This document shows, piece by piece, positions 10,088 to 28,899 of a stretch of DNA of 37,193 nt (positions are counted from its first letter, which is position 1; each line of letters starts with the position of its first letter). The stretch comes from Flavobacteriales bacterium (GTDB lineage: Bacteria > Bacteroidota > Bacteroidia > Flavobacteriales_F > PHOS-HE28): assembly GCA_046596155.1 (NCBI GenBank), contig JBKJNF010000254.1, forward strand, positions 1 to 37,193. Reading direction: 5' to 3'. The position numbers and the translations under genes were made by a program. The notes below the pieces were generated by a model that saw only the letters and a program-made list of their open reading frames with translations, made no database searches and was not told where the DNA came from.

Positions 10088-10146
10088 GGCCCCCTTCTCG
10101 TTCAATTTAATTGAATGATCACCAGCGAGTTGAATGCGTCTAGTCC

Positions 10147-10185
10147 CTTTTTGTCTAACTTTTTATCACTTTTCTTGAACATTTT
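10147..10185. promoter_or_regulatory. Candidate repressor operator upstream of the DUF4397-like gene
   Basis: AT-rich island with imperfect inverted repeat TGTCTAA-N16-TTGAACA and C-TTTT tracts at 10147, 10159, 10169 and 10180 (CATTTT). Confidence 0.4.
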
Positions 10186-10228
10186 GGATCGACTGCTTGT
10201 TCTTTGCGCAATCAACCGACAAAAAACC

Positions 10229-12643
10229 ATGAAATACTCCCGAACCCTCGGACTTTCGGTGGCCCTCCTACTGGTGGGTGCCTCCGCCACAGCGCAGACC
10301 GCCCGTGTGCAAGTGATCCACAACTGTGCTGACGCAGCCGCCACCCAGGTGGACGTGTGGCTGGACAATTCGCTCCTGCTGGACAATTTCGCGTTCCGCA
10401 CGGCCTCGCCCTTCGTAGATGCGCCTGCCGGTGTGCAATTCACAGTAGGCATCGCCTTACCGAACAGCACGATGGCCAGTGATGCGATCTTCCAACAGCA
10501 GTTCACCCTCGCAGACGGAGGTTCGTATGTGATCGTGGCCAGCGGCATTGTCAGCGGCAGTGGTTACATGCCTGCTACTCCGTTCAGCCTGGAGGTATTC
10601 GCCGCAGCGCAGGAATCTGCCATGGTTCCAACCAACACTGATGTGCTCGTGTTCCATGGTTCTACCGACGCTCCTACTGTGGATGTATTCGAGAGTGCTG
10701 TGCTGAACGCCACCGCCGTGGACAATGCGAGCTATGGAGATTTCGCCGGCTACCTCGGCCTGCCAACGGCTGACTACACGCTGCAGGTGCGTACGGCCGA
10801 TAATTCAGCGATCGTTGCGACGTATGCCGCACCCCTCGCAACGCTCGGTCTCGACGGAGCTGCACTCGCGGTGTTGGCCAGTGGTTTCCTGAACCCAGGC
10901 ATGAACAGCAATGGCCCGGCCTTCGGCCTGTGGGTCGCGTTGCCCTCCGGCGGAGCCCTCGTAGAACTGCCACTCGTGGCCAACCCCACAGCGCGTGTTC
11001 AGGTGGTGCATAACTGCGCCGATCTCGCAGCCAGCGTGGTGGACGTGTACTTGAACGACCAACTGCTGATCGACAATTTCGCATTCCGCACCGCCTCGCC
11101 CTTCGTGGACGCCCCGGCCACGATCTCCTTCACGGTGGGTATCGCGCCCGGCTCCAGCACATCCAGCGCCGATGCGATCTACACTCAGGAGCTCACCCTC
11201 GCAGAAGGGGAGACCTACACCGTTGTCGCCAGCGGAATCGTCAGCGGCTCCGGCTACAGCCCAGCCCAACCCTTCGTGTTGAACGCGTTTGCAGGAGCAC
11301 GTGAGTCCGCGAATATGCCCTTGAACACGGATGTGCTCGTTTACCATGGCAGCACCGACGCGCCAACCGTGGATGTGTTCGAAAGCGCTGTGCTGAACGC
11401 CACCGCTGTTAATGACGCGAGCTACGGCGACTACGCCGGATACCTCGAACTGCCCACTGCCGACTACACCTTGCAGGTGCGCACTGCGGACAACAGCGCC
11501 ATTGTGGCCACCTATGCAGCACCCCTGCAGACCCTCGGTCTTCAAGGCGTTGCGCTTACCGTGTATGCCAGTGGCTTCTTGGATCCTGCGGCGAACAGTA
11601 ATGGTCCGGCCTTCGGTCTGTGGGTGGCCCTGCCTGCCGGTGGAGCCCTCGTTGAACTTCCGTTGTTGCAGAACCCAACGGCGCGCGTTCAGATAATCCA
11701 CAACAGCGCCGACCTCGCAGCTTCCACCGTGGACGTATGGTTGAACAACACGTTGCTGATCGACAACTTCGCCTTCCGAACGGCCTCGCCCTTCGTGGAT
11801 GCTCCCGCTACCATCGACTTCAACGTGGGTATCGCTCCGGCGAACAGCACCGCAAGCACCGATGCCATCGCCAACTTCACGTATAACCTCATGGAGGGTG
11901 GCACCTACATCATCACTGCCAACGGTATCGTGAGTGCGACCGGATATAGCCCTGTGCAACCGTTCGACCTCTATGTGAAGGCTGATGCCCGTGTGTCCGC
12001 GAACACGCCCGGAAATACCGATATCCTGGTGTTCCATGGAAGCACCGATGCCCCGATCGTGGACGTTGCTGAGACCGCCGTGCTCGGCGGCGCCACCGTG
12101 GTGAACGACCTGGCATATGGTAACTATACCAACTACCTCGAAGTGCCCGCTGCAGACTACGTGCTGCAAGTGCGCACGGCCGATGGCACCCCGCTGGTGA
12201 GCTACCAGGCCCCCCTGGCCACCCTCGGCCTGGCCAATGCCGCGATCACTGTTCTGGCCAGTGGCTTCCTCGACCCCACGATGAACAGCAACGGAGCATC
12301 GTTCGGTCTGTGGGTTGCACTAGCCTCCGGTGGTGCACTGGTCGAACTGCCCCTAGCTACGGGCGTAAATGAGAACGATGCCGACCTGAACGCCATCAGC
12401 GCATGGCCGAACCCCGCCAACGACCAAGTGAACATCAGCCTCGACGCAGTTCGTGACGTTCGCAGCGCCATCGCCTTAATGGACTTCACCGGTCGGGTGG
12501 CCCTCGAAGTGGGTAGCGTACAGCTTCAGCAAGGTGCTAATCGCCTTGCCATTGATGTAGCAGGCCTGAGCGCAGGTGTGTATCAGTTGAGCATCACCAA
12601 CGAGAACGGTCGCCGCATCCTGCCACTTCAGGTGGTGCGCTGA
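10229..12643 (+). CDS. DUF4397-like repeat protein with T9SS type A CTD
   Basis: Signal peptide ending ATA-Q; ARVQxxHN and HGSTDAPxVDV modules; C-terminal WPNPA...DFTGR...AGVYQL...LQVVR. A-rich leader before ATG 10229. Confidence 0.88.
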   Translation: MKYSRTLGLSVALLLVGASATAQTARVQVIHNCADAAATQVDVWLDNSLLLDNFAFRTASPFVDAPAGVQFTVGIALPNSTMASDAIFQQQFTLADGGSYVIVASGIVSGSGYMPATPFSLEVFAAAQESAMVPTNTDVLVFHGSTDAPTVDVFESAVLNATAVDNASYGDFAGYLGLPTADYTLQVRTADNSAIVATYAAPLATLGLDGAALAVLASGFLNPGMNSNGPAFGLWVALPSGGALVELPLVANPTARVQVVHNCADLAASVVDVYLNDQLLIDNFAFRTASPFVDAPATISFTVGIAPGSSTSSADAIYTQELTLAEGETYTVVASGIVSGSGYSPAQPFVLNAFAGARESANMPLNTDVLVYHGSTDAPTVDVFESAVLNATAVNDASYGDYAGYLELPTADYTLQVRTADNSAIVATYAAPLQTLGLQGVALTVYASGFLDPAANSNGPAFGLWVALPAGGALVELPLLQNPTARVQIIHNSADLAASTVDVWLNNTLLIDNFAFRTASPFVDAPATIDFNVGIAPANSTASTDAIANFTYNLMEGGTYIITANGIVSATGYSPVQPFDLYVKADARVSANTPGNTDILVFHGSTDAPIVDVAETAVLGGATVVNDLAYGNYTNYLEVPAADYVLQVRTADGTPLVSYQAPLATLGLANAAITVLASGFLDPTMNSNGASFGLWVALASGGALVELPLATGVNENDADLNAISAWPNPANDQVNISLDAVRDVRSAIALMDFTGRVALEVGSVQLQQGANRLAIDVAGLSAGVYQLSITNENGRRILPLQVVR
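10301..12370 (+). repeat. Three intragenic tandem repeats of 690 bp (230 aa)
   Basis: ARVQ codons start at 10301, 10991 and 11681; DNFAFRTASPFVDAPA and FGLWVAL recur in all three units. Confidence 0.92.
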
Positions 12644-12666
12644 ACCGCCAATTCCTAATGATGGCG

Positions 12667-12692
12667 CGGGGCCTTCCGGGAGGAGGGCCCCG
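12667..12692 (+). terminator. GC-rich hairpin after the DUF4397-like gene (weak terminator or mRNA stabiliser)
   Basis: CGGGGCCTTCC-ggga-GGAGGGCCCCG; no clear U-tract. Confidence 0.5.
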
Positions 12693-12776
12693 GGTCGTTG
12701 GGGATGGTCCGAACATAAACTACCATCGATCGTTCTTCCGTAAGACATAACACAATCCTAGCTTCGCATCCGTACG

Positions 12777-13676
12777 ATGGGTCCCTACCTCAACAGATTC
12801 AGTATTCGCGACCTCGAGGAGTTCTCCGGTGTAAAGGCCCATACTATCCGTATCTGGGAGCGTCGTTACCGCATCTTGAACCCTGATCGAACAGACACGA
12901 ACATTCGCACCTATGGACTGGACGAGCTGAAGACGATCTTGAATGTCGCCTTCCTCAATCGCTATGGCGTGAAGATCTCCCGCATAGCGGCGCTCTCCGA
13001 GAAGGAGCGTGATCGGTCGGTGAAGGAACTGGCCGAGAAACAAGGGAGCACGGATGATGCGTTGAACGCCTTGAAGCTCGCCATGGTGGGATACGATACC
13101 CAGGGCTTCGAGCGCACCTCGGCCGTCTATCTCGAACGCGAAGGATTCCGCAACATGGTGGAGCGGCTGTACGTGCCGTTGTTGGAATGTATCGGCCTGC
13201 TCTGGCAAAGCAATTCCATCTGCCCCGCACAGGAACACTTCGTGAGCAACCTAGTGCGGCAGAAATTGATCGCCGCGATAGACGGTTTGCGTCCAACAAC
13301 GGCCGGTTCGGGAACCACGCAAGTGCTGTACTTGCCCCAGGACGAGATCCATGAACTAGGCCTGCTCTACGTGCATTACCTGTTGCGGTCCCGCGGTGAG
13401 CGGGTGGTATTCCTCGGATCAAGCGTGCCAAAGGATGACCTGGTACAGGTGGTGGAACAATTCTATGGACCGGTGCGCTTCATTTCCATCTTCACAGCAT
13501 TTCCCCAGAGCGATTCAGTGGCCGCTTATTTGGCCGACTTCCGCAAGGCCATGCCCGACCAACGTGTAAGCTTTCTGGTGACCGGGTCGCGCGTGGTGGC
13601 GGCCGCATTGGAAAGTACACCTCCAGGTGTGGTGGCCAAGGCCAGTTTCAAGGAACTGGTGGCGGATCTGTTCTGA
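12777..13676 (+). CDS. CarH/LitR-like MerR-family regulator with cobalamin-binding domain
   Basis: MerR HTH FSIRDLEEFSGVKAHTIRIWERRY; Wx9EH (WQSNSICPAQEH); ExHxxG (EIHELG). TAGCTTCG -7-like motif at 12759-12766. Confidence 0.9.
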   Translation: MGPYLNRFSIRDLEEFSGVKAHTIRIWERRYRILNPDRTDTNIRTYGLDELKTILNVAFLNRYGVKISRIAALSEKERDRSVKELAEKQGSTDDALNALKLAMVGYDTQGFERTSAVYLEREGFRNMVERLYVPLLECIGLLWQSNSICPAQEHFVSNLVRQKLIAAIDGLRPTTAGSGTTQVLYLPQDEIHELGLLYVHYLLRSRGERVVFLGSSVPKDDLVQVVEQFYGPVRFISIFTAFPQSDSVAAYLADFRKAMPDQRVSFLVTGSRVVAAALESTPPGVVAKASFKELVADLF

Positions 13677-15707: not shown

Positions 15708-15874
15708 GGTGCGAAGTTGGAACCGTTGTCCATTGGCGCTCCTACGTTCGATCGATTCTTTCCCACAAGAAAGTCCCCTGATCGGGAGGAATTCATACTT
15801 TTTCAATTCATTCCGCTTGGAACGAGGCATCCCATCCAGTGAAGCGGACGTGCTATTACCTGAAAATGGCCATC

Positions 15875-17848
15875 ATGAAGACTCTCCTTCCTCTGCTTTT
15901 GGTATTCTGCCTGTGGATCCCAGCACGGGCCCAGAACATCGGCATCAATGCGGACGGTGCCACGCCCAATGCCAGCGCCTTGCTGGATATCGACGTGAGC
16001 GCCTTGCCGGCCGCTAGCAAGCGCGGGCTGCTGATCCCCCGAGTGGCGCTCACCGCGACCAACGTGGCCGCACCGATCCCCGCCCCGGCGACCTCCCTGC
16101 TGGTATACAATACGGCCACGGCCGGTGTTTCACCCACTAACGTAGTGCCGGGGTTCTATCATTGGAATGGTGCAGCATGGGTGGCGATGCTGAGCGGAAA
16201 TCCGGGCTGGACGGTCCTGGGCAATGCGGGCACATCGCCGGTCGCCAACTTCATAGGCACCACGGATGCTGCGGACTGGGTGATCAAAACAGGAGGCAGC
16301 GCCGCGCTCAACGAACGCATCCGCGTGCTGGCCGGTGGACAGACCGTGATGAACAATACAGGTCTTGGCCTGAACACGAACGATGTATTCTCAGTATATG
16401 CGACGGGCACAACCAATGGCACCACGGCCAATACGACCGCATTAGGCCTGAAGGCGGTGAGCGGTTATTGCTCCAGCACCGGAATAGGCCTCTATGGCAG
16501 CAACACCGGTACAGCGGCGAACTCCTTTGCCATCTACGGAACCGTCCCAGCCACCACCGGTGCCGCCAACGCGATCCGGGGTGAGGCCGCCAGCGTGAAC
16601 GGCGTGGCCATTACGGGCATCACCAACACCAGTGCTGGTGTGATCCCTACCGCGACCAATGCCAGAGGTGTTATTGGCCAGGTGAACGGTACACTGGCCG
16701 GCACGGCGGTAGGCATCGGCGTCCAAGGCATCGCGAACCCCACCATGACCATCGGGGATGCACGCGGCGTGCAGGGTACATCGCCCTCCGATAATGGTAC
16801 CGGGGTGCTGGGCTTTTCAACCACCTTGGCCATCACCGCCTTCCCATCCGGAGTCTACGGCCAGGCCGCCAGTGTATCCGGCACCGGGGTTACCGGGATC
16901 GCCACCTCCGCGCTCACCACGAATAACCCCACGGGGGTGTATGGTCAATCGGCCAGCACCACCGGCTTCGCGGTGGACGGGTTCAATACGACCGCGGCCG
17001 GTACAGGTGTGTTGGGGGAGGGGAACGGCATTGGCGGTACATACCTGACAGCTGGTAGTGGTGGTGCGTTCACCGGCACAGGCACCGGTACATTTTCACT
17101 GGCCACCACGGTGGCCACTGGTACCGGCTTGCTGGCCGTGGGTAACAACCTGGCGGCCTTTGGTAGTCTGGCCGCTGGCGCTGGCGTTGCCGGAAACGGA
17201 CAAAATTTCGGAGTGTATGGCGTCGCCACCAGTAACGCCGTTGGTGCTGTTAACGCACCAGCCCGGGCCGGTGGTTATTTTGTAAGCGGGACCGCCCCAG
17301 CACAATCCTTCACCTACGTGGCCTGCTATGAAGGGGGTGGAACACCGCGCAAGGTGATGGGGAACGGTACGGTCAACACCGTGGTGAAGAACGCTGATGA
17401 TCAATACGTGCTCCTCTCCGCACCCGAAGCTCCGGAGAATCTGTTCGAGGATTTCGGCACCGGCCAGCTACTCAACGGCAAAACGCATATCACCCTCGAT
17501 CCAACCCTGAGCCGGAACGTTCTCGTGAACGACCAACATCCCCTCCGCGTATTCGTTCAATTGCGCGGCGATTGCAAGGGCGTATTCGTGTCCAATGAGA
17601 CCGCTGAAGGATTCGACGTCACCGAACTGCAGGGTGGCATTTCCAATTCCCGCTTCTTCTGGACCGTGGTGGCCAACCGTGCCAACCAATCGTTCGCTGA
17701 TGGCACGAACTGGCCTTTTGCCGAAGAACGATTCGCCCACACCCAAGGTCCGCAGCCCACCATTGTGTCTGGATCAATGAAGCGGGCTCCCGAACGAGCA
17801 CCGGAGCGATCACTAGGACCGACCAGCGTTACAGGGATCGTGCCTTAA
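15875..17848 (+). CDS. Secreted Gly/Thr/Ala-rich fibre-like surface protein with GVxG repeats
   Basis: Signal peptide ending ARA-Q; N-terminal NIGIN...ASALLDI...GLLIPRV...LLVYNT...GFYHWNG module; roughly 15 (G/A)-V/I-x-G repeats; C-terminal APEAPENLFEDFG domain. Confidence 0.8.
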   Translation: MKTLLPLLLVFCLWIPARAQNIGINADGATPNASALLDIDVSALPAASKRGLLIPRVALTATNVAAPIPAPATSLLVYNTATAGVSPTNVVPGFYHWNGAAWVAMLSGNPGWTVLGNAGTSPVANFIGTTDAADWVIKTGGSAALNERIRVLAGGQTVMNNTGLGLNTNDVFSVYATGTTNGTTANTTALGLKAVSGYCSSTGIGLYGSNTGTAANSFAIYGTVPATTGAANAIRGEAASVNGVAITGITNTSAGVIPTATNARGVIGQVNGTLAGTAVGIGVQGIANPTMTIGDARGVQGTSPSDNGTGVLGFSTTLAITAFPSGVYGQAASVSGTGVTGIATSALTTNNPTGVYGQSASTTGFAVDGFNTTAAGTGVLGEGNGIGGTYLTAGSGGAFTGTGTGTFSLATTVATGTGLLAVGNNLAAFGSLAAGAGVAGNGQNFGVYGVATSNAVGAVNAPARAGGYFVSGTAPAQSFTYVACYEGGGTPRKVMGNGTVNTVVKNADDQYVLLSAPEAPENLFEDFGTGQLLNGKTHITLDPTLSRNVLVNDQHPLRVFVQLRGDCKGVFVSNETAEGFDVTELQGGISNSRFFWTVVANRANQSFADGTNWPFAEERFAHTQGPQPTIVSGSMKRAPERAPERSLGPTSVTGIVP

Positions 17849-19417: not shown

Positions 19418-20104
19418 ATGTTGATGTCCAACAGGAAAACGGTCTCTCGGTCCGATATGTTCAAGGTGGGCACCCAACGGGTGGAGGCCTTGGGCGATGG
19501 GATCTTCGCGATCGCGATGACCTTGATGGTGTTGGAGCTGAAGATCCCCGAATGGCAGGACGAAGTATCCAATGAGCGCGTGTGGCACTATTTGCAGGAC
19601 CTCGCGCCGAGCCTCTTTGCCTTTGCCCTGTCCTTCATCATCCTGGGGATCTTCTGGTTCGCACACCGCTTGGAGTACATCTTCATCAGCTCCAGCAACC
19701 GCAAGCTCATCTGGCTGAACATCCTGTTCTACTTCGCCATCTGCATGATCCCGTTCAGCGCCGCCATGCTCGGCCGTTACAGTGAGGATCAGCTGGTGGA
19801 AGTGTTCTACGGCGTTAACCTGATCGTGGCCGCTGAACTGCTTCATTGGATCTGGAACTATGGCACCTCCATCCCCGAACTCTGCGAACGCGAGGTACCC
19901 AAGGAACTGCGGAAGGAGATCCAACTCCTCTTCGTGTTGGCCCCTGCGGTCTATGCTGTGGCCATCGGCATCAGCTTCGTGGAGCCCAGATGGAGCTTCT
20001 ACTTCTACCTGTTCACTCCGCTGCTCTACCTCATCCCCACGAAGTTGGATCGGTACATGCCTGCCCGCGTGCCCAAGCACCAACATGGAAGGAAAGAGCA
20101 ATGA
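19418..20104 (+). CDS. TMEM175-family (DUF1211) potassium channel-like protein
   Basis: RVEALGDGIFAIAMTLMVLEL, SFIILGIFWFAHR, WLNILF and IPFS motifs. TAATTTCG motif at 19396-19403. Confidence 0.88.
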   Translation: MLMSNRKTVSRSDMFKVGTQRVEALGDGIFAIAMTLMVLELKIPEWQDEVSNERVWHYLQDLAPSLFAFALSFIILGIFWFAHRLEYIFISSSNRKLIWLNILFYFAICMIPFSAAMLGRYSEDQLVEVFYGVNLIVAAELLHWIWNYGTSIPELCEREVPKELRKEIQLLFVLAPAVYAVAIGISFVEPRWSFYFYLFTPLLYLIPTKLDRYMPARVPKHQHGRKEQ

Positions 20105-20216
20105 CCACCCGTTCACCCCGCCGCGAACGGCATTCTAATTGACCATCCGCTCCACGGCCCGACCGGTGCGAAGTGATGCGCCGGGGTATCTTGGCCGCCC
20201 CTTGAACGTGAACCAC

Positions 20217-22469
20217 ATGATGATGCGTAACACCCTGTTCGCCGCGGGTCTGCTGATCGCGGCCTTCTCGCTCTCCGCCCAGAAACAACTCAGCAACCAG
20301 GACATCTGGTACAGTCCGGCCTTCGGTGCCGAGCGTGTGGGTGGCCTCAACAGTATGAACGATGGCCTTCGCTATACTTCACAGGAAGAGGAAGGTGGGA
20401 CGCCGGTGATCAACGTATTCGACTATCGCACGGGCAGCAAGCTGAGCACCCTGATGAATGGCAAGGATCTGATGCTGCCGGGTGCAAAAACCCCCATCGG
20501 CTTCGATGGCTACCACCTCAGCGGCGATGAGAAACTGATGATGATCGAGAGCGCCACTGAGCCCCTCTACCGCTACAGCTATTACGCTTACAACTACATC
20601 TACGACCTAAAGGGCAAGAGCTTGAAACCACTGAGCGATACCACCAAGGCCAAGCAACGTCTGGCCACGTTCAGCCCGGATGGAAGCCACGCCGCGTTCG
20701 TGCGCGATAACAACCTCTTCGTGGTGGATCTGACGACGATGCAGGAGACCGCCGTTACCCGCGATGGCCAGTGGAACAAGGTGATCAACGGGGCAACGGA
20801 CTGGGTGTACGAAGAGGAATTCGCGCTGGTGCAGGGCTACCAATGGAGCCCTGACGGCAACCGCATCATCTTCCTGCGCAGCGATGAGAGCGAGGTGAAG
20901 GAGTTCGACATCGCGATGTACAAGGACCAGTTGTACCCGAGCGGCTACCACTACAAATACCCGAAAGCAGGTGAAACGAACAGCGAAGTGAGCCTGACCG
21001 TGTACGACCTACGCGGCGGCATCAACACGCGCGTGCCACTGGGCACGGATGAAGTGGACATCTACCTCCCGCGCTTCGGCTTCACCAACAATGAAGAGAC
21101 CGTGTGGTTCATGCGCATGAACCGCCTCCAGAACGAGAAGCGCATCTACACAGTACCTGTCCCCGTGCTCAAGCAAGGCCCCGGCGCTCTTGCACCACAG
21201 GAGGTATACAACGAACAAAGCAGAACATACATCGAGGTTACGGATGACCTCTTCTTCCTGAAGGACGGAAGTGGCTTCGTGATCACCAGCGAGAGCAGCG
21301 GCTGGAACCAGATCTACTTCTGCCCAATGGGTGGCAAGGCCACCACGAAGCCCGCTACGCTTTCCGCCAGTGCCAAGCGCGCGATCACAACGGGCAGCTT
21401 CGACGTTGCCGGTGTGAAGGGCATCGACGAGGCTGGTAAGCGCGTGATCTTCACCGCCAGCATGAAGGACCCGATGCACCAAGAGGTATACGCGATGGGG
21501 CTCAACGGCAAGGGCCTGAAGGAACTTTCGCCCGTGGGCGGCAGCAGCGATGCAGAGTTCAGCACCGGCTTCAAGTACTTCATCAACACGCACAGCACGG
21601 CCAACGAACCCGAGACCATCACGCTGCACGATGGTCAGGGAAAGCTGGTGAAGACCTTGAAGGACAACGTCAAGCTGCGCAACAAGCTGAAGGAATACGA
21701 CCTGCCCCAGAAGGAGTTCATGAAGATCGCCCTGGACAACGGCACCGAGCTGAACGCGTGGATCATCAAGCCGCCCAAGTTCGACAGCCGCCAGCAGTAC
21801 CCCGTGTTCATGACGCAATACAGCGGGCCCAACAGCAATGAGGTGCTCGACCAGTGGGGCGGTCGCAACCTCCTCTGGCACCAACTGCTCGCGCAGAAGG
21901 GCTACATCGTGGTGTGCGCCGATCCCCGCGGCACGGGTCGTCGCGGGCATGACTTCCGCCACATCACCTACGGCCAGCTGGGCAAATACGAAACAGAGGA
22001 CCAGATCGGCGTGGCCAAGTGGCTCGGCGCGCAGCCCTACGTGGACAAACAGCGCATCGGCATCCAAGGCTGGAGCTATGGTGGGTACATGAGCAGCTTG
22101 TGCATCACCAAGGGCGCTGGCTTCTTCAAGGCCGCCATCGCCGTGGCACCTGTGACCAACTGGCGCTACTACGACAGCATCTACACCGAGCGCTACATGG
22201 GCCTTCCCAAGGACAACGCCACCGGCTACGATGACAATAGCCCGATCAACCACGTGGATAAGCTACGCGGCAAGTACCTGCTCATCCACGGTTTGGCCGA
22301 TGACAACGTGCACTTTCAGAACAGCGCCCAAATGCTGACCGCGCTGGTGAAGGCGAACAAGACATTCGACTTCATGGCCTACCCGGACAAGAACCATGGT
22401 ATCTATGGCGGCACCACGCGCCTCCACCTGTACGAGAAGATGACCAACTTCCTCCTTCAGAACCTTTAA
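20217..22469 (+). CDS. Dipeptidyl peptidase IV (S9B serine peptidase)
   Basis: Signal peptide ending LSA-Q; DWVYEEE double-Glu motif, YPKAG, GWSYGG nucleophile, DDNVH and KNHGI. Start could be any of three Met codons (20217-20223). Confidence 0.93.
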   Translation: MMMRNTLFAAGLLIAAFSLSAQKQLSNQDIWYSPAFGAERVGGLNSMNDGLRYTSQEEEGGTPVINVFDYRTGSKLSTLMNGKDLMLPGAKTPIGFDGYHLSGDEKLMMIESATEPLYRYSYYAYNYIYDLKGKSLKPLSDTTKAKQRLATFSPDGSHAAFVRDNNLFVVDLTTMQETAVTRDGQWNKVINGATDWVYEEEFALVQGYQWSPDGNRIIFLRSDESEVKEFDIAMYKDQLYPSGYHYKYPKAGETNSEVSLTVYDLRGGINTRVPLGTDEVDIYLPRFGFTNNEETVWFMRMNRLQNEKRIYTVPVPVLKQGPGALAPQEVYNEQSRTYIEVTDDLFFLKDGSGFVITSESSGWNQIYFCPMGGKATTKPATLSASAKRAITTGSFDVAGVKGIDEAGKRVIFTASMKDPMHQEVYAMGLNGKGLKELSPVGGSSDAEFSTGFKYFINTHSTANEPETITLHDGQGKLVKTLKDNVKLRNKLKEYDLPQKEFMKIALDNGTELNAWIIKPPKFDSRQQYPVFMTQYSGPNSNEVLDQWGGRNLLWHQLLAQKGYIVVCADPRGTGRRGHDFRHITYGQLGKYETEDQIGVAKWLGAQPYVDKQRIGIQGWSYGGYMSSLCITKGAGFFKAAIAVAPVTNWRYYDSIYTERYMGLPKDNATGYDDNSPINHVDKLRGKYLLIHGLADDNVHFQNSAQMLTALVKANKTFDFMAYPDKNHGIYGGTTRLHLYEKMTNFLLQNL

Positions 22470-22604
22470 GAGGCGAGGGACCAGGGAACGCTGGATCTGA
22501 GAAGCGGGCCAAGGGGTTCCCTTCTCCGTTTTACCCGCCCGTATTCCACGATTCCTCGGTTCTGCTACCTTCCCCGCCGATCGGACCAAAACAGACCTCC
22601 TCGC

Positions 22605-24149
22605 ATGAGCAACACGACCATCGAACAAGGCCACCCCAAGGGGCTGTACCTGCTGTTCTTCACCGAAATGTGGGAACGCTTCAGCTATTATGGCATGCGG
22701 GCGATCTTCATCCTGTTCATGACCAAGGCCCTGTTCATGGGCAACGCCGAAGCGAGCAACATCTATGGCAGCTTCACCGGCCTCGTTTACCTCACCCCGC
22801 TGCTCGGCGGCTACATCAGCGATCGCTACTGGGGCAACCGGCGCAGCATTTTCGTGGGCGGCATCCTGATGGCCATCGGTCAGTTCCTCCTCTTCTTCAG
22901 CGGTAGCTATGTAACAGAAGGGGTGCAGAGCGCAGGTGCCATCAGCACCATGTGGGCAGGCCTTACGCTGATCATCATTGGGAACGGGTTCTTCAAACCG
23001 AACATCAGCACCATGGTGGGGCAGCTGTACCCCAAGAACGACCGACGCATTGATGGGGCCTTCACCATCTTCTATATGGGCATCAACCTCGGCGCTCTTT
23101 TCGCACCGCTGATCTGTGGTGGCCTTGGCGACACCGGGAATATCTTCGACTTCAAGTGGGGATTCCTCTCGGCGGGCATCGGCATGATCGTGAGCGTGAT
23201 CTCCTTCGAGCTGATGAAGAACAAGTATCTGGTGGACGCTGCGGGCAACCACATCGGGATGCCCAAGCAGAAGATGGACATAAAGACCGTAGCCACCATC
23301 CTAGGCGCGGTGGCCCTGATGTTCGTGCTGCTCAACTTCAAGACCTGGTTCAAGGTGGACATCGACCCGATCGGCTACCTGATCTATGGGGCCATGGTGG
23401 CCATGCCCATCGTGATCTTCAGCGACAAGAGTTTGGTGCACGAAGAGAAGCAGCGCATCAGCGTGATCTTCATCCTGGCCTTCTTCGTGATCTTCTTCTG
23501 GGCCTGTTTCGAGCAGGCAGGTGCTTCGCTAACCCTCTTCGCCGATCAGCAGACCGAACGCCACATCGCGGGATGGGAGATGCCCGCGTCGTACTTCCAA
23601 AGCGTGAACCCATTCCTCATCATCATCCTAGCACCGTTGTTCAGCATGCTGTGGATCGGCTTGGGCAAGCGCGGCTGGGAGCCCTCATCACCGTTGAAAA
23701 TGGCCATCGGCCTTGCGCTTTTGGCCATCGGCTACATGGTGATCGCCTTCGGTGTACATGGCGTTGATGCCAGCGCCAAGATCAGCATGTGGTGGCTCAT
23801 AACCTTGTATGGCCTGCATACCATGGGCGAGCTCTGCCTCTCCCCGATCGGGTTGAGCATGGTGAGCAAACTTGCTCCACTACGCCTGTCATCGCTGCTC
23901 ATGGGCACCTGGTTCCTGGCCAACGCGGCAGCGAACAAGTTCGCAGGGACCTTGAGCGCTCTGATCCCCCCCGGTGCAGGGGAGAGCGCCACACCGGCCG
24001 TTGAGGTGAAGATCCCCATGCTCATGGGCATCCCCATCGACAACCTGTTCACCTTCTTCATGGTGTTCATTGTGCTCAGCGGCAGCGCGGCCGTCATCCT
24101 GGTGCTGATCCACCGCTGGCTGCAAGGCCGCATGCACGGAGTGAACTAG
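22605..24149 (+). CDS. POT/PTR proton-coupled oligopeptide transporter 1
   Basis: EMWERFSYYGMR, GNGFFKPN, FYMGINLG, FEQ, FQSVNP and GELCLSP motifs. Confidence 0.95.
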   Translation: MSNTTIEQGHPKGLYLLFFTEMWERFSYYGMRAIFILFMTKALFMGNAEASNIYGSFTGLVYLTPLLGGYISDRYWGNRRSIFVGGILMAIGQFLLFFSGSYVTEGVQSAGAISTMWAGLTLIIIGNGFFKPNISTMVGQLYPKNDRRIDGAFTIFYMGINLGALFAPLICGGLGDTGNIFDFKWGFLSAGIGMIVSVISFELMKNKYLVDAAGNHIGMPKQKMDIKTVATILGAVALMFVLLNFKTWFKVDIDPIGYLIYGAMVAMPIVIFSDKSLVHEEKQRISVIFILAFFVIFFWACFEQAGASLTLFADQQTERHIAGWEMPASYFQSVNPFLIIILAPLFSMLWIGLGKRGWEPSSPLKMAIGLALLAIGYMVIAFGVHGVDASAKISMWWLITLYGLHTMGELCLSPIGLSMVSKLAPLRLSSLLMGTWFLANAAANKFAGTLSALIPPGAGESATPAVEVKIPMLMGIPIDNLFTFFMVFIVLSGSAAVILVLIHRWLQGRMHGVN

Positions 24150-24273
24150 CCAGCAGCATTCATCGGCGCATGTTGCAGACTGCCGCACTGATGTTTCACC
24201 GGTGCCGTTCACGCGTTGTGAACATCGGCGATTCCGCCAATACGAGCGATCATCCATTCCGCCGTAGAACAGC

Positions 24274-25911
24274 ATGACCCCACAAGGCAAACACCCACGG
24301 GGCTTGCCCTTCCTGTTCCTCACCGAGATGTGGGAGCGCTTCGGGTACTACCTGATGATCGGTATCTTCCAGCTGTACCTGATGGACCCGGTGTCCACCG
24401 GCGGCATGGCCATGGACCGCAAGGATGCTGCGGATATCTACGGCACCTTCATCGCGCTGGTGTTCCTCACGCCCTTCCTCGGCGGCCTCCTCGCCGACCG
24501 TGTACTGGGATACAGCCGCGCCATCTTCCTCGGCGGCACGCTCATGGGCCTTGGCTATATCGGACTCTCGCTTCCGGGCATGACCGCCTTCTATGCATCA
24601 TTGGCGCTGATCATCATCGGCAATGGGTTCTTCAAGCCCAACATCAGCACCTTGCTGGGCAACCTGTATAGTGTTGACCACTACCGCGCCCAGAAGGACA
24701 GCGGGTACAACATCTTCTACATGGGCATCAACATCGGTGCCTGCATCTGCAACCTCTTCGCGGCCTACATGCGCAACCGCTATGGCTGGGGCTACGCCTT
24801 CGCCACGGCCGGCGTGGGCATGTTCATCGGGCTTATCGTGTTCGCCATCGGCCTGCGCCACTACCGCCACGCCGATATAAGGAAGCCGGTGCAGAAGGAG
24901 GATATGCCCTTGAGCCGCATACTTACCACCGTATTCCTACCCGCCATCATCGTGGGCATTGCTGCATGGTCGTTCCCCGGCAACTTGCTTGGCAGCGACT
25001 CCACGGATGCCTTCATCTTCGCTACCATCCCGGTGATCATCTTCTACATTGGCCTCTATCTACGCGCGTCGCTGGAGGACAAGAAGCCGCTGCTCGGCCT
25101 GCTGAGCATATTCGCCGTAAGCGTCATGTTCTGGGCGGTGTTCAAGCAGAACGGCACAGCCCTCACCACTTGGGCACAGTACTACACCGATCGTGAACTG
25201 CCTGCGGCGATCGTACCCCTGGGCGAATCGCTCTACCAAGTGGAGAAGCCCGTGAACGCGGTGGATTCCGTGGTGGCCTATGACGATGACTTCAAGGTGA
25301 TCAAGGTGGACGGCAAGGAGCAGAAGGTCCTGGGCAGGCCCGTGTACTACAAGAACATGCAGCCGGAGCTGTTCCCGCCCGAGGGACAGCCGGCCTACAT
25401 CCTGAACACCGAGCTCTTCCAGTCCGTGAACCCGCTGTGGGTGGTGATCCTCACGCCCTTCGTGGTGGGCTTCTTCGCCTTCCTGCGCAAGCGCGGGCGC
25501 GAACCCAGCACGGCCAGCAAGATCGGCTGGGGCCTGCTCGTTTCGGCCCTGTCCACCTTGGTCATGGTGTGGGCTGTGCACATCTGCCAGAACGGCGCCA
25601 TCAAGGCCTCGGCGTGGTGGCTGATCGCCAGCTACGGCGTGGTGACCGTAGGCGAACTTATGCTCAGCCCAATGGGCCTTTCGTTGGTGAGCAAAGTGAG
25701 CCCCACGCGCCTCACCGCCCTGATGATGGGCGGCTGGTTCCTTTCCACCTCCATCGGCAACAAGCTCTCCGGTATCCTCGCCAGCCTGTGGGACACCTAC
25801 GAGGACAAGAGCCACTTCTTCCTGGTGAACTTCGGCCTGCTGATGATCGCCACCATCATCATGTTCGTGATGTTGCGCTGGCTCAACCGCATCATCCCGG
25901 AAAAGAAGTAG
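24274..25911 (+). CDS. POT/PTR oligopeptide transporter 2 (atypical)
   Basis: EMWERFGYYLMI, GNGFFKPN, FYMGINIG, FKQ, long loop, FQSVNP and GELMLSP. Confidence 0.93.
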   Translation: MTPQGKHPRGLPFLFLTEMWERFGYYLMIGIFQLYLMDPVSTGGMAMDRKDAADIYGTFIALVFLTPFLGGLLADRVLGYSRAIFLGGTLMGLGYIGLSLPGMTAFYASLALIIIGNGFFKPNISTLLGNLYSVDHYRAQKDSGYNIFYMGINIGACICNLFAAYMRNRYGWGYAFATAGVGMFIGLIVFAIGLRHYRHADIRKPVQKEDMPLSRILTTVFLPAIIVGIAAWSFPGNLLGSDSTDAFIFATIPVIIFYIGLYLRASLEDKKPLLGLLSIFAVSVMFWAVFKQNGTALTTWAQYYTDRELPAAIVPLGESLYQVEKPVNAVDSVVAYDDDFKVIKVDGKEQKVLGRPVYYKNMQPELFPPEGQPAYILNTELFQSVNPLWVVILTPFVVGFFAFLRKRGREPSTASKIGWGLLVSALSTLVMVWAVHICQNGAIKASAWWLIASYGVVTVGELMLSPMGLSLVSKVSPTRLTALMMGGWFLSTSIGNKLSGILASLWDTYEDKSHFFLVNFGLLMIATIIMFVMLRWLNRIIPEKK

Positions 25912-25923
25912 ATCTTCATCCCC

Positions 25924-27408
25924 ATGAACAGCTCCCCCACCCTCGACCAGATCCGCAACTTCGAAGGGAAGTATCCCCGGCAGCTCTGGTACCTCTTCGG
26001 CACCGAGATGTGGGAGCGGTTCTGCTTCTACGGCATGCGCGGCATGCTTACTGTGTTCATGGTAACCAAGCTGGGGCTCGACGACCGCACCGCGAACCTG
26101 CAGTACGGCGCCATCCAGGCCTTCGTGTACGCCTTCACCTTCATCGGCGGCGTGTTCGCCGACAAGATCCTTGGCTTCCAGAAGTCGCTCGTGTGGGGCG
26201 CGCTGCTGATGATCCTCGGGGGACTCGTGATCGCCTTTGCACCCAACGAGCTTTTCTACATCGGCACCAGCTTCTCCATCATCGGCACGGGCTTCTTCAA
26301 GCCGAACATCAGCACCATGGTAGGCCAGCTTTACAATGACACCGACAGTCGACGTGATGCGGGCTTCAGCCTCTTCTACGCGGGCATCAACCTGGGCGCA
26401 TTGCTCGGTGGCATCATCATGGTGTACGTAGGCAAGTACTATTCCTGGAGCCTGGCCTTCGGACTGGTCTCCGTGGTGATGACGATCAGCTTGATCAACT
26501 TCTTCCTTACCCGCAGATCGCTCGGTCCCATCGGACTTTCCCCGCTCCATCCGGATACCACACCAACACGTCGTCGCTACCTGGAGATCGGTACCTACAT
26601 CGCGTCGTTGATCGCTGTGCCCATCATTCTCGCCCTCGTTACTGTGCCGCGCAACACGGACCTGTTCATGTACATCATCGGCCCGGCCACGTTGGTCTAC
26701 CTGGCCTTTGAAATGCGCAAGTTCTCCTGGGCACAGAACAAGAAGCTCCTCGCCGCGCTGGTGTTCATTTTCTTCTCCATCCTCTTCTGGGCCTTCTTCG
26801 AACAGAGCGGCGGCTCGCTCAGTCTGTTCGCATTGAACAATCTGCGGGGCACCTTCTTCGGCATCCCTATGGACCCGAACGCGGTGAACAATTCCGCCAA
26901 TTCCCTCTTCGTGATCGTCTTCGCGGCGCTGTTGGGCCTGCTGTGGGTTTGGTTGAGCAAACGGAAAATGGAGCCCAACTCCGTAGTGAAGTTCGGCCTC
27001 GGGTTCCTGTTGCTCGCCGTCGCGTTCTATGTATTCTACGCCACCATCCACTTCGCCGATTCGAACGGTGTAACGTCCCTGGAGGTCTTCACATTGGGCT
27101 ACTTCGTTATCACGTTCGGCGAGCTCTGCCTTTCGCCCATCGGCCTCTCGCTCATGACCAAGCTTTCACCGAACTCGGTGCAGGGCCTTATGATGGGCAT
27201 GTGGTTCCTGGCCAGCGCCTACGGCCAGTACGTTGCCGGCCTGCTCGGGGCCGGTATGAGCACCGCCGACCAGAACGCCCCGAACATCGAAAAGCTGCAA
27301 TCCTATACCTCGGGTTACCTGCAGCTTGGCATCTACGCGCTGATCGCGGGTGTGGTGCTCATCGCCCTGTCTCCCTTGGTGAAAAAGCTGATGGGCAACA
27401 TTCACTGA
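25924..27408 (+). CDS. POT/PTR oligopeptide transporter 3
   Basis: EMWERFCFYGMR, GTGFFKPN, FYAGINLG, FEQ and GELCLSP motifs. Confidence 0.93.
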   Translation: MNSSPTLDQIRNFEGKYPRQLWYLFGTEMWERFCFYGMRGMLTVFMVTKLGLDDRTANLQYGAIQAFVYAFTFIGGVFADKILGFQKSLVWGALLMILGGLVIAFAPNELFYIGTSFSIIGTGFFKPNISTMVGQLYNDTDSRRDAGFSLFYAGINLGALLGGIIMVYVGKYYSWSLAFGLVSVVMTISLINFFLTRRSLGPIGLSPLHPDTTPTRRRYLEIGTYIASLIAVPIILALVTVPRNTDLFMYIIGPATLVYLAFEMRKFSWAQNKKLLAALVFIFFSILFWAFFEQSGGSLSLFALNNLRGTFFGIPMDPNAVNNSANSLFVIVFAALLGLLWVWLSKRKMEPNSVVKFGLGFLLLAVAFYVFYATIHFADSNGVTSLEVFTLGYFVITFGELCLSPIGLSLMTKLSPNSVQGLMMGMWFLASAYGQYVAGLLGAGMSTADQNAPNIEKLQSYTSGYLQLGIYALIAGVVLIALSPLVKKLMGNIH

Positions 27409-27460: not shown

Positions 27461-28042
27461 ATGCGCTTCCCGCTGCTCCTTTCCGCTGCACTTCCACTCT
27501 TGGCCTTTGCCCAGGACCATGGCGGTGCTGTTCCTGCCGACCATGGTGATGCCCTTGTAAAATGGGTGCCGATCGGCGAAGCCCAGAAAGCCGCCATGGC
27601 CGATGGCAAGCCGTTGATGGTGGACATGTGGACGCCTTGGTGCGGCTGGTGCAAGAAGATGGATGCCGCTACCTTCCGCGATGAACAGACCGCAGCGTAC
27701 ATCAATGCCAACTTCCATCCCGTGTCCTTCAACGCCGAAGGACCGGACACGGTGTTTTACAACGACCAGAAGTACATCAACACGGCATACGATCCCAAGC
27801 TGCAGGGCGGCCGCAACGGCACCCACCCCTGGACCCAGGCCGTGGCCGCGGCCAATGGCGGCATCGGCTACCCCACCATCGTTTACATCGCAGCGGATGG
27901 CACGCTGATCGGCCCCGACCCGGGGTTCAAGTCGCCCGAGGATATCGAATCTGTCCTGCGCTACGTGCGCGAAGGCGCCTACAAGACCATGTCCTTCGCC
28001 GATTTTCGCGCCACGTTCAAGAGCGCCCGCACCGGGAATTGA
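27461..28042 (+). CDS. Exported thioredoxin-fold protein (DUF255/thioredoxin-like)
   Basis: Signal peptide ending AFA-Q; KPLMVDMWTPWCGWCKKMD CxxC motif; cis-Pro motif GYPT. TAACTTCG at 27432-27439. Confidence 0.9.
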   Translation: MRFPLLLSAALPLLAFAQDHGGAVPADHGDALVKWVPIGEAQKAAMADGKPLMVDMWTPWCGWCKKMDAATFRDEQTAAYINANFHPVSFNAEGPDTVFYNDQKYINTAYDPKLQGGRNGTHPWTQAVAAANGGIGYPTIVYIAADGTLIGPDPGFKSPEDIESVLRYVREGAYKTMSFADFRATFKSARTGN

Positions 28043-28128
28043 CCAACACCAGCGCGTCGCGATCTCGCCAGCGCACGAGCCGGGTTGCCGCATTCCCGAA
28101 GGTCCAAGATGATACCTTAGCGCTCCGC

Positions 28129-28899
28129 ATGCGCGCACTCGTGATCGCTTTCCTGCTTTGCCCGTTCCTGCTGTTCGGACAGATCCAGAACTGGAACCCG
28201 GAGCCCTATCACACGGACAGCGCGCTGATCTTCCACGACGACCTGGATTATTACCTGAACAGCTACAGCCAGGCGGAGATCCGCAGCATGCGCAAGCAGG
28301 TGAACATCTTGCGCATGAACTTCGATAAGGTGATCAAGGCCACCATCGCCGATCTGCGGACGTATAGCGAAGGAGGTGGCATGGTGCCACGCATGCACGA
28401 CTTTGAATTGACCGACGCGCGTGATGGGCACCGCTACAAATTGAGCGAAGAGCGCGGTCGCATCCGGGCCTTCATGTTCGGCAGCATCACCAACCCACCG
28501 GCGCGTTTCCAACTGCCCCTGTGGGACCGCCTGATGGAGAAATACGCCGCCAAGCCTGTGGACCTGTTGGTGATCTACGGAAAGGAACTTCACCCCGGGG
28601 ACCATAAGAAGTTCAAGAACTACCCCGACCCAAAGAGCGAATACGAGAAGCGCGCCTACGCGCAGGAATTCGCGCAGCTTACCAAGCTGCCTGTTTTGGT
28701 GGATGGACTGGATGACTCCGCGCTCAACGCATACGGCCGCGTGCCGAATGGCGTGTATGTCTTCGACAAGAACGACAACCTGGTGTTCCGAGGAACATGG
28801 GCGGACAGCCGGAAGATCGAACAGATCATCGACACGCTTTTGAAGTGGTACGCTGACGGAAAGCCGAAGGCACCGCCCGCTAAGGTGATGACGGATTAG
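28129..28899 (+). CDS. Exported iodothyronine-deiodinase-like thioredoxin-fold protein lacking catalytic Sec/Cys
   Basis: Signal peptide ending LFG-Q; DFELTD, FGSITNPP, IYGKELHPGD and VLVDGLDDSALNAYGRVPNGVYVFD motifs. TACCTTAG at 28113-28120. Confidence 0.75.
   Translation: MRALVIAFLLCPFLLFGQIQNWNPEPYHTDSALIFHDDLDYYLNSYSQAEIRSMRKQVNILRMNFDKVIKATIADLRTYSEGGGMVPRMHDFELTDARDGHRYKLSEERGRIRAFMFGSITNPPARFQLPLWDRLMEKYAAKPVDLLVIYGKELHPGDHKKFKNYPDPKSEYEKRAYAQEFAQLTKLPVLVDGLDDSALNAYGRVPNGVYVFDKNDNLVFRGTWADSRKIEQIIDTLLKWYADGKPKAPPAKVMTD

Follow-up and report, generated by a model that had tools for sequence, protein, structure and literature searches.

A predicted CarH-type regulator and a shared candidate operator connect a DUF4397 repeat protein with carotenoid and photolyase genes in Flavobacteriales

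We analyzed a 37,193-nucleotide stretch of DNA from a Flavobacteriales bacterium (assembly GCA_046596155.1, contig JBKJNF010000254.1, positions 1–37,193), here called the window, to which all plain coordinates refer. Two co-oriented genes are at issue: one for a large repeat protein built of domains of unknown function 4397 (DUF4397) and ending in a type IX secretion system (T9SS) tail and, downstream of it, one for a MerR-family regulator. Judging from sequence, the regulator is probably a CarH-type repressor responsive to light and B12 that controls a dispersed regulon, composed of a cluster of extracytoplasmic function (ECF) sigma factor, carotenoid (crt) and photolyase genes on another contig and of the DUF4397 protein, which is predicted to be secreted (Table 1). 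A first-pass annotation had presented the pair as a regulator tied to a secreted protein instead of carotenoid genes. In line with that annotation, no crt, photolyase or B12 gene was found among the 31 window open reading frames (ORFs) scanned, a statement that holds for the window only; the notion of a replacement is contradicted by the cluster elsewhere in the genome, which carries the same predicted operator, and by three relatives whose crt cluster itself includes the DUF4397 gene.

Table 1. Features of the locus and of related loci in the same genome
Feature	Coordinates	Strand	Basis or remark
Candidate CarH operator, inverted repeat TGTCTA-N18-TGAACA	10152..10181	.	Genome-wide matrix rank 2; conserved 5′ of homologs
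Candidate ECF-sigma promoter GAACA-N16-TGTT	10177..10201	+	−35 element overlaps operator right arm; inferred
804-aa protein with signal peptide (~1–22, by eye), three DUF4397 units of ~230 aa, each a double beta-sandwich, and a C-terminal T9SS type-A domain	10229..12643	+	Pfam, NCBIfam, model
Strong GC-rich hairpin between DUF4397 gene and carH, no U-tract	12660..12699	+	Folding compared with shuffles
Second candidate ECF-type promoter GAACA-N16-CGTT 5′ of carH, without operator left arm	12711..12735	+	Inferred, weak
CarH/class I LitR-type MerR regulator, predicted to bind adenosylcobalamin	12777..13676	+	Domains, motifs, homologs
ECF sigma–crtI–crtB–idi–photolyase–SRPBCC–probable crtZ–methyltransferase–PduO cluster	L009:432-7771 (G000:C172)		Two operator copies flank TAnnTTTG element
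Cobalamin riboswitch and 451-aa ORF with T9SS tail and weak kelch match	L228:1501-2980 (G000:C279:9279-10758)		Riboswitch directly 5′ of ORF

The regulator (299 amino acids [aa]) was the sole close copy found in the genome by sequence search. It matches the N-terminal winged-helix DNA-binding domain MerR_1 (PF13411; 39.1 bits, Pfam cut-off 21.6) and B12-binding_2 (29.3 bits, cut-off 23). The two motifs that the first-pass annotation had picked out are present, Wx9EH, the motif that caps the adenosyl group, as W143-x9-E153H154 (positions 143–154) and ExHxxG, the lower-ligand motif, as E190-x-H192-xx-G195 (positions 190–195), and both align with those of the closest solved relatives, the Thermus thermophilus CarH (TtCarH) structures 5c8d and 3whp (E = 1e-14). 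Together these motifs define CarH homologs, according to the part of PMC8156234 available to us. Among 24 Bacteroidia homologs, Wx9EH is kept in 23; under strict patterns ExHxxG is kept in 21, and both motifs are present in 21. The recognition-helix residues W27-E28-R30, R38 and R44 are also common to the regulator and TtCarH. We consider the regulator likely to be an adenosylcobalamin (AdoCbl)-dependent repressor of the CarH type that light would release, in agreement with the earlier assignment from motifs; as a sensor it represents a known type.

The carotenoid genes are found on contig C172, where an ECF sigma factor, a crtI-like FAD oxidoreductase, phytoene synthase (crtB), a Nudix-type idi and photolyase are encoded in one orientation. 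The cluster continues in that orientation with an SRPBCC-like protein, a product without a Pfam match that is probably CrtZ judging from a motif, a methyltransferase and, at the end, the cobalamin adenosyltransferase PduO. In several crt clusters of the genus, folE (GTP cyclohydrolase I) is inserted between idi and photolyase (L095:3794-4471, L097:4431-5117). The order ECF–methyltransferase–pduO is kept in three of four CarH-less relatives examined, which have lost the crt genes.

A candidate operator common to both loci was defined as the inverted repeat TGTYYA-N18/19-TRRACA with at most one mismatch. In a first set of promoters, it preceded 24 of 28 DUF4397 genes and 26 of 27 ECF/crtI genes, and all 16 carH genes were without it. 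A matrix built from 42 sites in 25 crt/ECF promoters, all from other genomes, scored highest of 6,827,144 positions at the C172 crt promoter (27.8 bits) and second highest at the DUF4397 promoter (25.6 bits; match at window position 10149), so that the promoter region named in the first-pass annotation carries a conserved candidate operator. Three sites in the genome exceeded 20 bits, compared with none in three local shuffles. Of the lower-ranked operator matches (rank 3 and below, excluding the second crt site), the seven inspected fell within coding sequence or close to it, and we did not count them as targets.

Species genomes were then scanned, and the best 80 of 594 matches gave a wider set of 79 loci, with titles naming Flavobacteriales, Bacteroidales, Crocinitomicaceae and others; its genomes overlap in part with those used before. 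Here 61 of the 73 scorable DUF4397 promoters reached 20 bits (6 of 79 could not be scored), compared with 17 of 624 other upstream regions of the same loci, and several of those 17 control regions were carH promoters. In four CarH-less genomes of the genus (92%–99% complete), the syntenic ECF gene is kept, and no site above 10 bits was found there. Because the palindrome precedes both the DUF4397–T9SS gene and the ECF–crt–photolyase cluster, the repeat protein is likely an accessory member of the photoprotection regulon; sharing a predicted site with the crt and photorepair genes, it would probably form part of the light-protection response and not replace it.

The synteny survey that the first-pass annotation had proposed found the gene pair conserved. 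Among 36 genomes of the genus, the regulator was detected in 23 and the repeat protein in 24, and the same 12 are without both; in the single genome with the repeat protein alone, the contig ends inside the DUF4397 gene. The DUF4397 gene is directly 5′ of carH in 20 of the 23 CarH-bearing members, three of which have the crtI operon divergent from DUF4397–carH, and the remaining three have the order carH–ECF–crtI–crtB–idi–phr–DUF4397. Within the wider set, carH was found inside 33 of the 79 Bacteroidota loci, and crt or photolyase genes inside seven. For 50 of these loci, chosen mainly outside the genus, the regulator was found in 48 genomes and a phytoene/squalene synthase in 44. In another class of the phylum, one DUF4397 gene lies directly 5′ of crtI–crtB–lycopene cyclase. 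In a midpoint-rooted CarH tree of 24 rows, where long branches meet, the in-cluster CarH of G019 and G025 groups with proteins of other families, and no order of events could be derived.

A second motif suggested a further regulatory tier. The ECF-type sequence RAACA-N15-18-YGTT was found before 19 of 28 DUF4397 genes and eight of 16 carH genes, but before only two of 27 crt/ECF genes; none of these 16 carH genes has an operator with an 18- or 19-bp spacer. The element TAnnTTTG, the housekeeping promoter consensus of Bacteroidota, showed the reverse pattern (15 of 27 crt/ECF vs. three of 28 DUF4397 promoters), and the three DUF4397 promoters with it are from genomes whose ECF gene is separate. 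A related ECF-type motif precedes nine of 27 fasciclin genes (two of 29 loci were left out), including seven of the nine closest copies, compared with 102 of 1890 background regions (5.4%). The motif is probably, on this comparative analysis, the promoter of the ECF sigma factor of the crt cluster. A genome-wide matrix for it was not selective (262 matches, with the carH promoter outside the top 40). As for individual fasciclin genes, this genome has two in tandem with GAAC-N17-TGTTC upstream (L229; G000:C198:1912-3061), and one in G025 (L237; G025:C121) also has a full CarH-type operator, arranged as at the DUF4397 promoter. The hairpin between the DUF4397 gene and carH (−34.6 kcal/mol, z = −5.8, none of 200 shuffles as stable) was not called an intrinsic terminator by a terminator scan and is likely a partial terminator or an mRNA-stabilizing stem. 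Sigma-70, terminator and Rfam scans of the window returned nothing relevant, with no Rfam match.

These elements can be combined into a possible mechanism. In the dark, the AdoCbl-loaded repressor would occupy two sites at the ECF–crt cluster, covering its housekeeping promoter, and a single site at the DUF4397 promoter, covering the −35 element there. Light, or a shortage of AdoCbl, would release it and so induce the ECF sigma factor, which would in turn drive transcription from GAAC-N16/17-TGTT promoters at the DUF4397 gene, at fasciclin genes and at carH itself; T9SS would export the DUF4397 protein to the outer surface. We give slightly better than even chances to the ECF tier acting as a feed-forward loop with negative feedback.

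Several observations, set out in this and the next two paragraphs, weigh against a CarH-controlled regulon of this kind. For the regulator, the B12-binding model PF02310 scored 25.2 bits, below its Pfam cut-off of 32.1, and the distal B12 motif x41-SxV/T-x22-27-GG is degenerate, with S237 at the right spacing, then I-F239, and a single G270 31 residues further. The score against the NCBIfam CarH equivalog NF052513 was 75.7 bits for a cut-off of 400; this cut-off was reached in just one of 14 control genomes, which suggests that the model is narrow. The degenerate motif and the low PF02310 score would suit a B12-independent repressor resembling CarA or class II LitR, which would govern the same regulon in answer to another release signal (an antirepressor or oxidation) and would be no photoreceptor. 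So would Gln144, which replaces the His next to the Trp, the loss of both B12 motifs in homolog L033, and the fact that MerR-like palindromes suit a dimer. We regard such a repressor as very unlikely given the strict conservation of both signature motifs noted above and given that CarA, in the available text of PMC8156234, is without Wx9EH. A CarH homolog that has lost both B12 motifs also heads an ECF–photolyase run at L128 (G057:C11:46313-47029) and is possibly a B12-independent variant.

The operator raises the question of what binds it. Characterized CarH proteins read tandem 11-bp direct repeats (nnnnTnnACAn) with the half-site TnnACA, and the inverted-repeat layout seen here is unlike every CarH operator described in the accessible parts of PMC8156234 and PMC9304148. 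In the 58 operators whose spacer is 18 bp long, the two arms make a clean palindrome, the spacer turns from T-rich to A-rich, and no internal 11-bp repeat is conserved; the C172 site alone also has three TGT spaced by 11 bp. The regulator would belong to the CarH class by its domains and motifs, but not by its operator architecture or by the narrow equivalog. The CarH-positive G022 (L103) has no operator at its crt promoter; G006 and G008, where CarH was not found (73% and 85% complete), do carry it; and in G004, G015 and G027 it is missing from the separate ECF gene and present at crtI and DUF4397. The matrix background favors AT-rich DNA, in test and control regions alike. Since the palindrome differs from known CarH direct repeats, another factor could bind it: It may belong to a different regulator, or form part of an ECF promoter whose −35 element is its right arm, with DUF4397 being a general ECF envelope-stress gene that travels with carH, much as it closes operator-free ECF runs in four loci of other classes (see below). 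Three findings make this unlikely, namely the disappearance of the site in the four genomes that lack CarH and keep the ECF gene, its position at crt promoters, where it flanks the housekeeping element (in 15 of 27) as expected of a repressor site, and a half-site that fits the CarH consensus TnnACA, alongside the recognition-helix residues shared with TtCarH.

Linkage is also weaker across the phylum at large, and kin genomes are not independent of one another. In an even draw of 301 genomes of the phylum, 57 of 74 other genomes of the same class have the regulator, and just four of these 57 CarH-bearing Bacteroidia have the repeat; all four repeat-bearing Bacteroidia have the regulator, with one strong and one marginal site. 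In other classes, 21 of 24 DUF4397-bearing genomes have no full-length CarH match (three have one), and none of 11 scorable DUF4397 promoters reached 14 bits. As these repeats are mostly without CarH and without a strong site, the fold appears not to be light-specific, and the weak linkage suggests that the DUF4397–T9SS protein is an accessory target in one subfamily and that the fold has wider envelope roles. In four of 12 other-class loci (L266:2698-7495, L272:3737-9452, L273:3444-8421 and L264:5814-10462), a DUF4397–T9SS gene closes a run of ECF sigma, probable anti-sigma and small-protein genes without a CarH-type operator. Co-occurrence with crtB outside the class was rejected as a test because it does not discriminate: PF00494 was found in 27 of 28 genomes, and the family also covers squalene synthases.

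The DUF4397 protein itself was well covered by domain models. Six DUF4397 stretches (PF14344; 176.5 bits, above the Pfam cut-off) are arranged as three units of ~230 aa that begin at residues 24, 254 and 484 and are 54%–75% identical to each other over their first 170 residues. The T9SS type-A tail matched PF18962 (43.5 bits) and TIGR04183 (31.8 bits), both above cut-off, bearing out the co-oriented T9SS-tailed repeat protein noticed earlier upstream of the regulator. The signal peptide was judged by eye only. Secretion is predicted from these ends, and a search of the genome for GldM/PorM, as a T9SS component, gave two matches above cut-off. The gene likely starts at ATG 10229; the ATG at 10115 chosen by the ORF caller was rejected, since the operator would then fall within the coding region and since homologs have a length of 804 aa.

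An AlphaFold2 (AF2) model of unit 1 (from 73 sequences; pLDDT 95, pTM 0.90) consists of two beta-sandwiches. Its best fold match was the extracellular domain of PepT2 (Z = 15.2, rmsd 2.7, 175 residues aligned), with Foldseek in agreement (E = 5e-6), and only two of 48,161 chains reached Z = 8. The next matches, HGSNAT and AlgF (Z = 5.2 for AlgF), each covered one half. The PepT1/PepT2 extracellular domain (5a9h, 7nqk) and the C-terminal domain of Pseudomonas aeruginosa AlgF (6d10) share this tandem transthyretin-like beta-sandwich fold, at 9%–12% identity and with no match in a PDB sequence search, and a common fold does not show a common function. In PepT1/2 and AlgF, these domains have docking or adaptor roles. 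A sequence search of the repeat unit against the PDB found no significant solved relative, and all three rows among the ESM Atlas matches listed were DUF4397 clusters. The window also encodes, at 20139–27408, a dipeptidyl peptidase IV followed by three tandem POT peptide transporters; the DUF4397 unit resembles in fold the extracellular domain of animal POT transporters, and the linkage of these genes with the DUF4397 gene is probably due to chance.

Homologs carry two to five units per protein, a variable number that would be less expected of an enzyme than of a coat or a multivalent binder. The conserved polar residues of the unit are H9, N10, D13, D20, R35, H121, D125 and S196, with one near-invariant His in each half (H9 in 71 of 73 sequences, H121 in 70 of 73). 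The chances appear about even that, under photo-oxidative stress, the protein coats the outer surface or binds there in a multivalent, nonenzymatic way. A carotenoid or lipid would be the first candidate ligand, though a doubtful one. Carotenoid-binding proteins include the fasciclin AstaP; no carotenoprotein was among the 50 fold matches listed.

The histidines could instead point to corrinoids. In this alternative, the regulator is mainly a sensor of B12 availability, and the DUF4397 protein captures or recycles surface corrinoids when AdoCbl is scarce or photolyzed. The genome is 98.7% complete, and no CobS was found, which would leave import as the source of B12; together with PduO, and with methylmalonyl-CoA mutase and a cobalamin riboswitch present in the genome, this makes it likely that the cell imports B12 and adenosylates what it imports. 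Six of 50 DUF4397-bearing genomes (completeness not given) have no crtB match, and a homolog in Thermus brockianus lies directly 3′ of a cob operon. The genome's sole cobalamin riboswitch, however, precedes a different T9SS cargo (on C279), no B12-binding protein was among the 50 fold matches listed for unit 1, and an operator shared with carotenoid and photolyase genes is a better fit to light. We therefore consider the corrinoid alternative unlikely. Of the functions that the first-pass annotation had offered, corrinoid capture is thus weakened; any function of the protein is one that we infer. The C279 cargo is itself a candidate secreted B12-capture protein, presumably similar to BtuG, for which a PDB sequence search matched no solved B12-binding protein.

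A light- and B12-controlled regulon with a DUF4397 member has a parallel in Thermus. T. thermophilus has a single-unit homolog (221 aa, 24% identity, pairwise E = 3e-8) whose gene is ~9 kb from ldrP–carH–crtB on pTT27 and which in strain HB8, at 79721–80386, occupies the position of TTHB089. Work by Takano in 2014 reportedly found that light induces the TT_P0044 promoter under the control of LitR and LdrP. A table in PMC1876623 gives TT_P0044 jointly with TTHB089, as two-domain proteins of 221 aa. According to the available text of PMC7662524, the site upstream of TTHB089 binds TTHB099/LdrP (KD 3.3 nM), and TTHB089 is modestly lower in an ldrP mutant (logFC −0.78, adjusted P = 0.045). The Thermus CarH/LitR structures (5c8d, 5c8e, 5c8f and 3whp) have the same MerR, four-helix and Rossmann architecture as our regulator and both B12 motifs, at ~23% identity, and both regulons include crtB, crtI, photolyase and a DUF4397 gene, there under LdrP, an activator downstream of CarH. 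The two differ in that our candidate operator is a palindrome with an 18- or 19-bp spacer and not a set of tandem 11-bp repeats, an ECF sigma factor takes the place of a CRP-type activator, three DUF4397 units and a T9SS tail replace one 221-aa unit, and the DUF4397 gene itself carries a candidate operator. On pTB1 of T. brockianus (L130:9324-12019), the DUF4397 gene directly follows the cobyric acid synthase gene that ends the cob operon and precedes a uvsE block.

Two further systems show partial likeness. In Streptomyces LitR–LitS, as in our proposal, an AdoB12 repressor controls an ECF sigma factor that transcribes light genes, going by the portion of PMC11519972 available; in our genome, by contrast, a housekeeping-type promoter precedes the ECF gene and the crt genes behind it, carH lies apart from the crt genes, and the promoter motifs differ. 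Myxococcus CarH/CarA similarly combine B12 import with PduO-made AdoCbl and a TnnACA half-site, and dimeric CarH variants exist, but these proteins bind to direct repeats even at sites that also contain inverted ones, whereas our candidate site is an inverted repeat; a secreted target is predicted here, and none is described for them (PMC8156234 and PMC9304148, as far as their accessible portions go). We found no paper tying DUF4397 to CarH, and among the papers listed on DUF4397 none was on light by title or abstract start. The papers listed on CarH regulation in Bacteroidota did not, in the text covered, describe this operator, which subscription papers may already do. As far as the literature searched shows, three elements are new: the candidate operator of Bacteroidota with its palindromic layout, the probable ECF tier, and the predicted targeting of a T9SS cargo.

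Other genes of the window include a 669-aa Gly/Thr/Ala-rich repetitive protein with no Pfam or NCBIfam match (15839–17848), which is also near the locus in several relatives, a TMEM175-type potassium channel adjoining an MFS transporter (19418–20104), and a thioredoxin-like protein followed by an iodothyronine-deiodinase-like protein (27461–28899; PF00837, E = 1e-11).

A broader reading joins these threads, and we offer it as speculative and improbable as a whole. DUF4397 would be an unrecognized family, spread across phyla, of envelope proteins that are induced by light and bind carotenoid or other photoprotective lipid; in Bacteroidia, two to five copies in tandem would be exported by T9SS and form an outer coat acting as a sunscreen, the CarH lineage there would read the palindrome as a dimer, and the unit would be a bacterial relative, in structure, of the extracellular domain of animal PepT1/2. 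For the regulon itself, the analysis places a domain that is widespread but of unknown function in a context open to testing, that of light/B12 photoprotection, which is supported in Bacteroidia and separately in Thermus. It also provides a precise candidate operator for Bacteroidota CarH, and the palindromic layout may bear on how CarH photoreceptors read DNA and on their optogenetic use.

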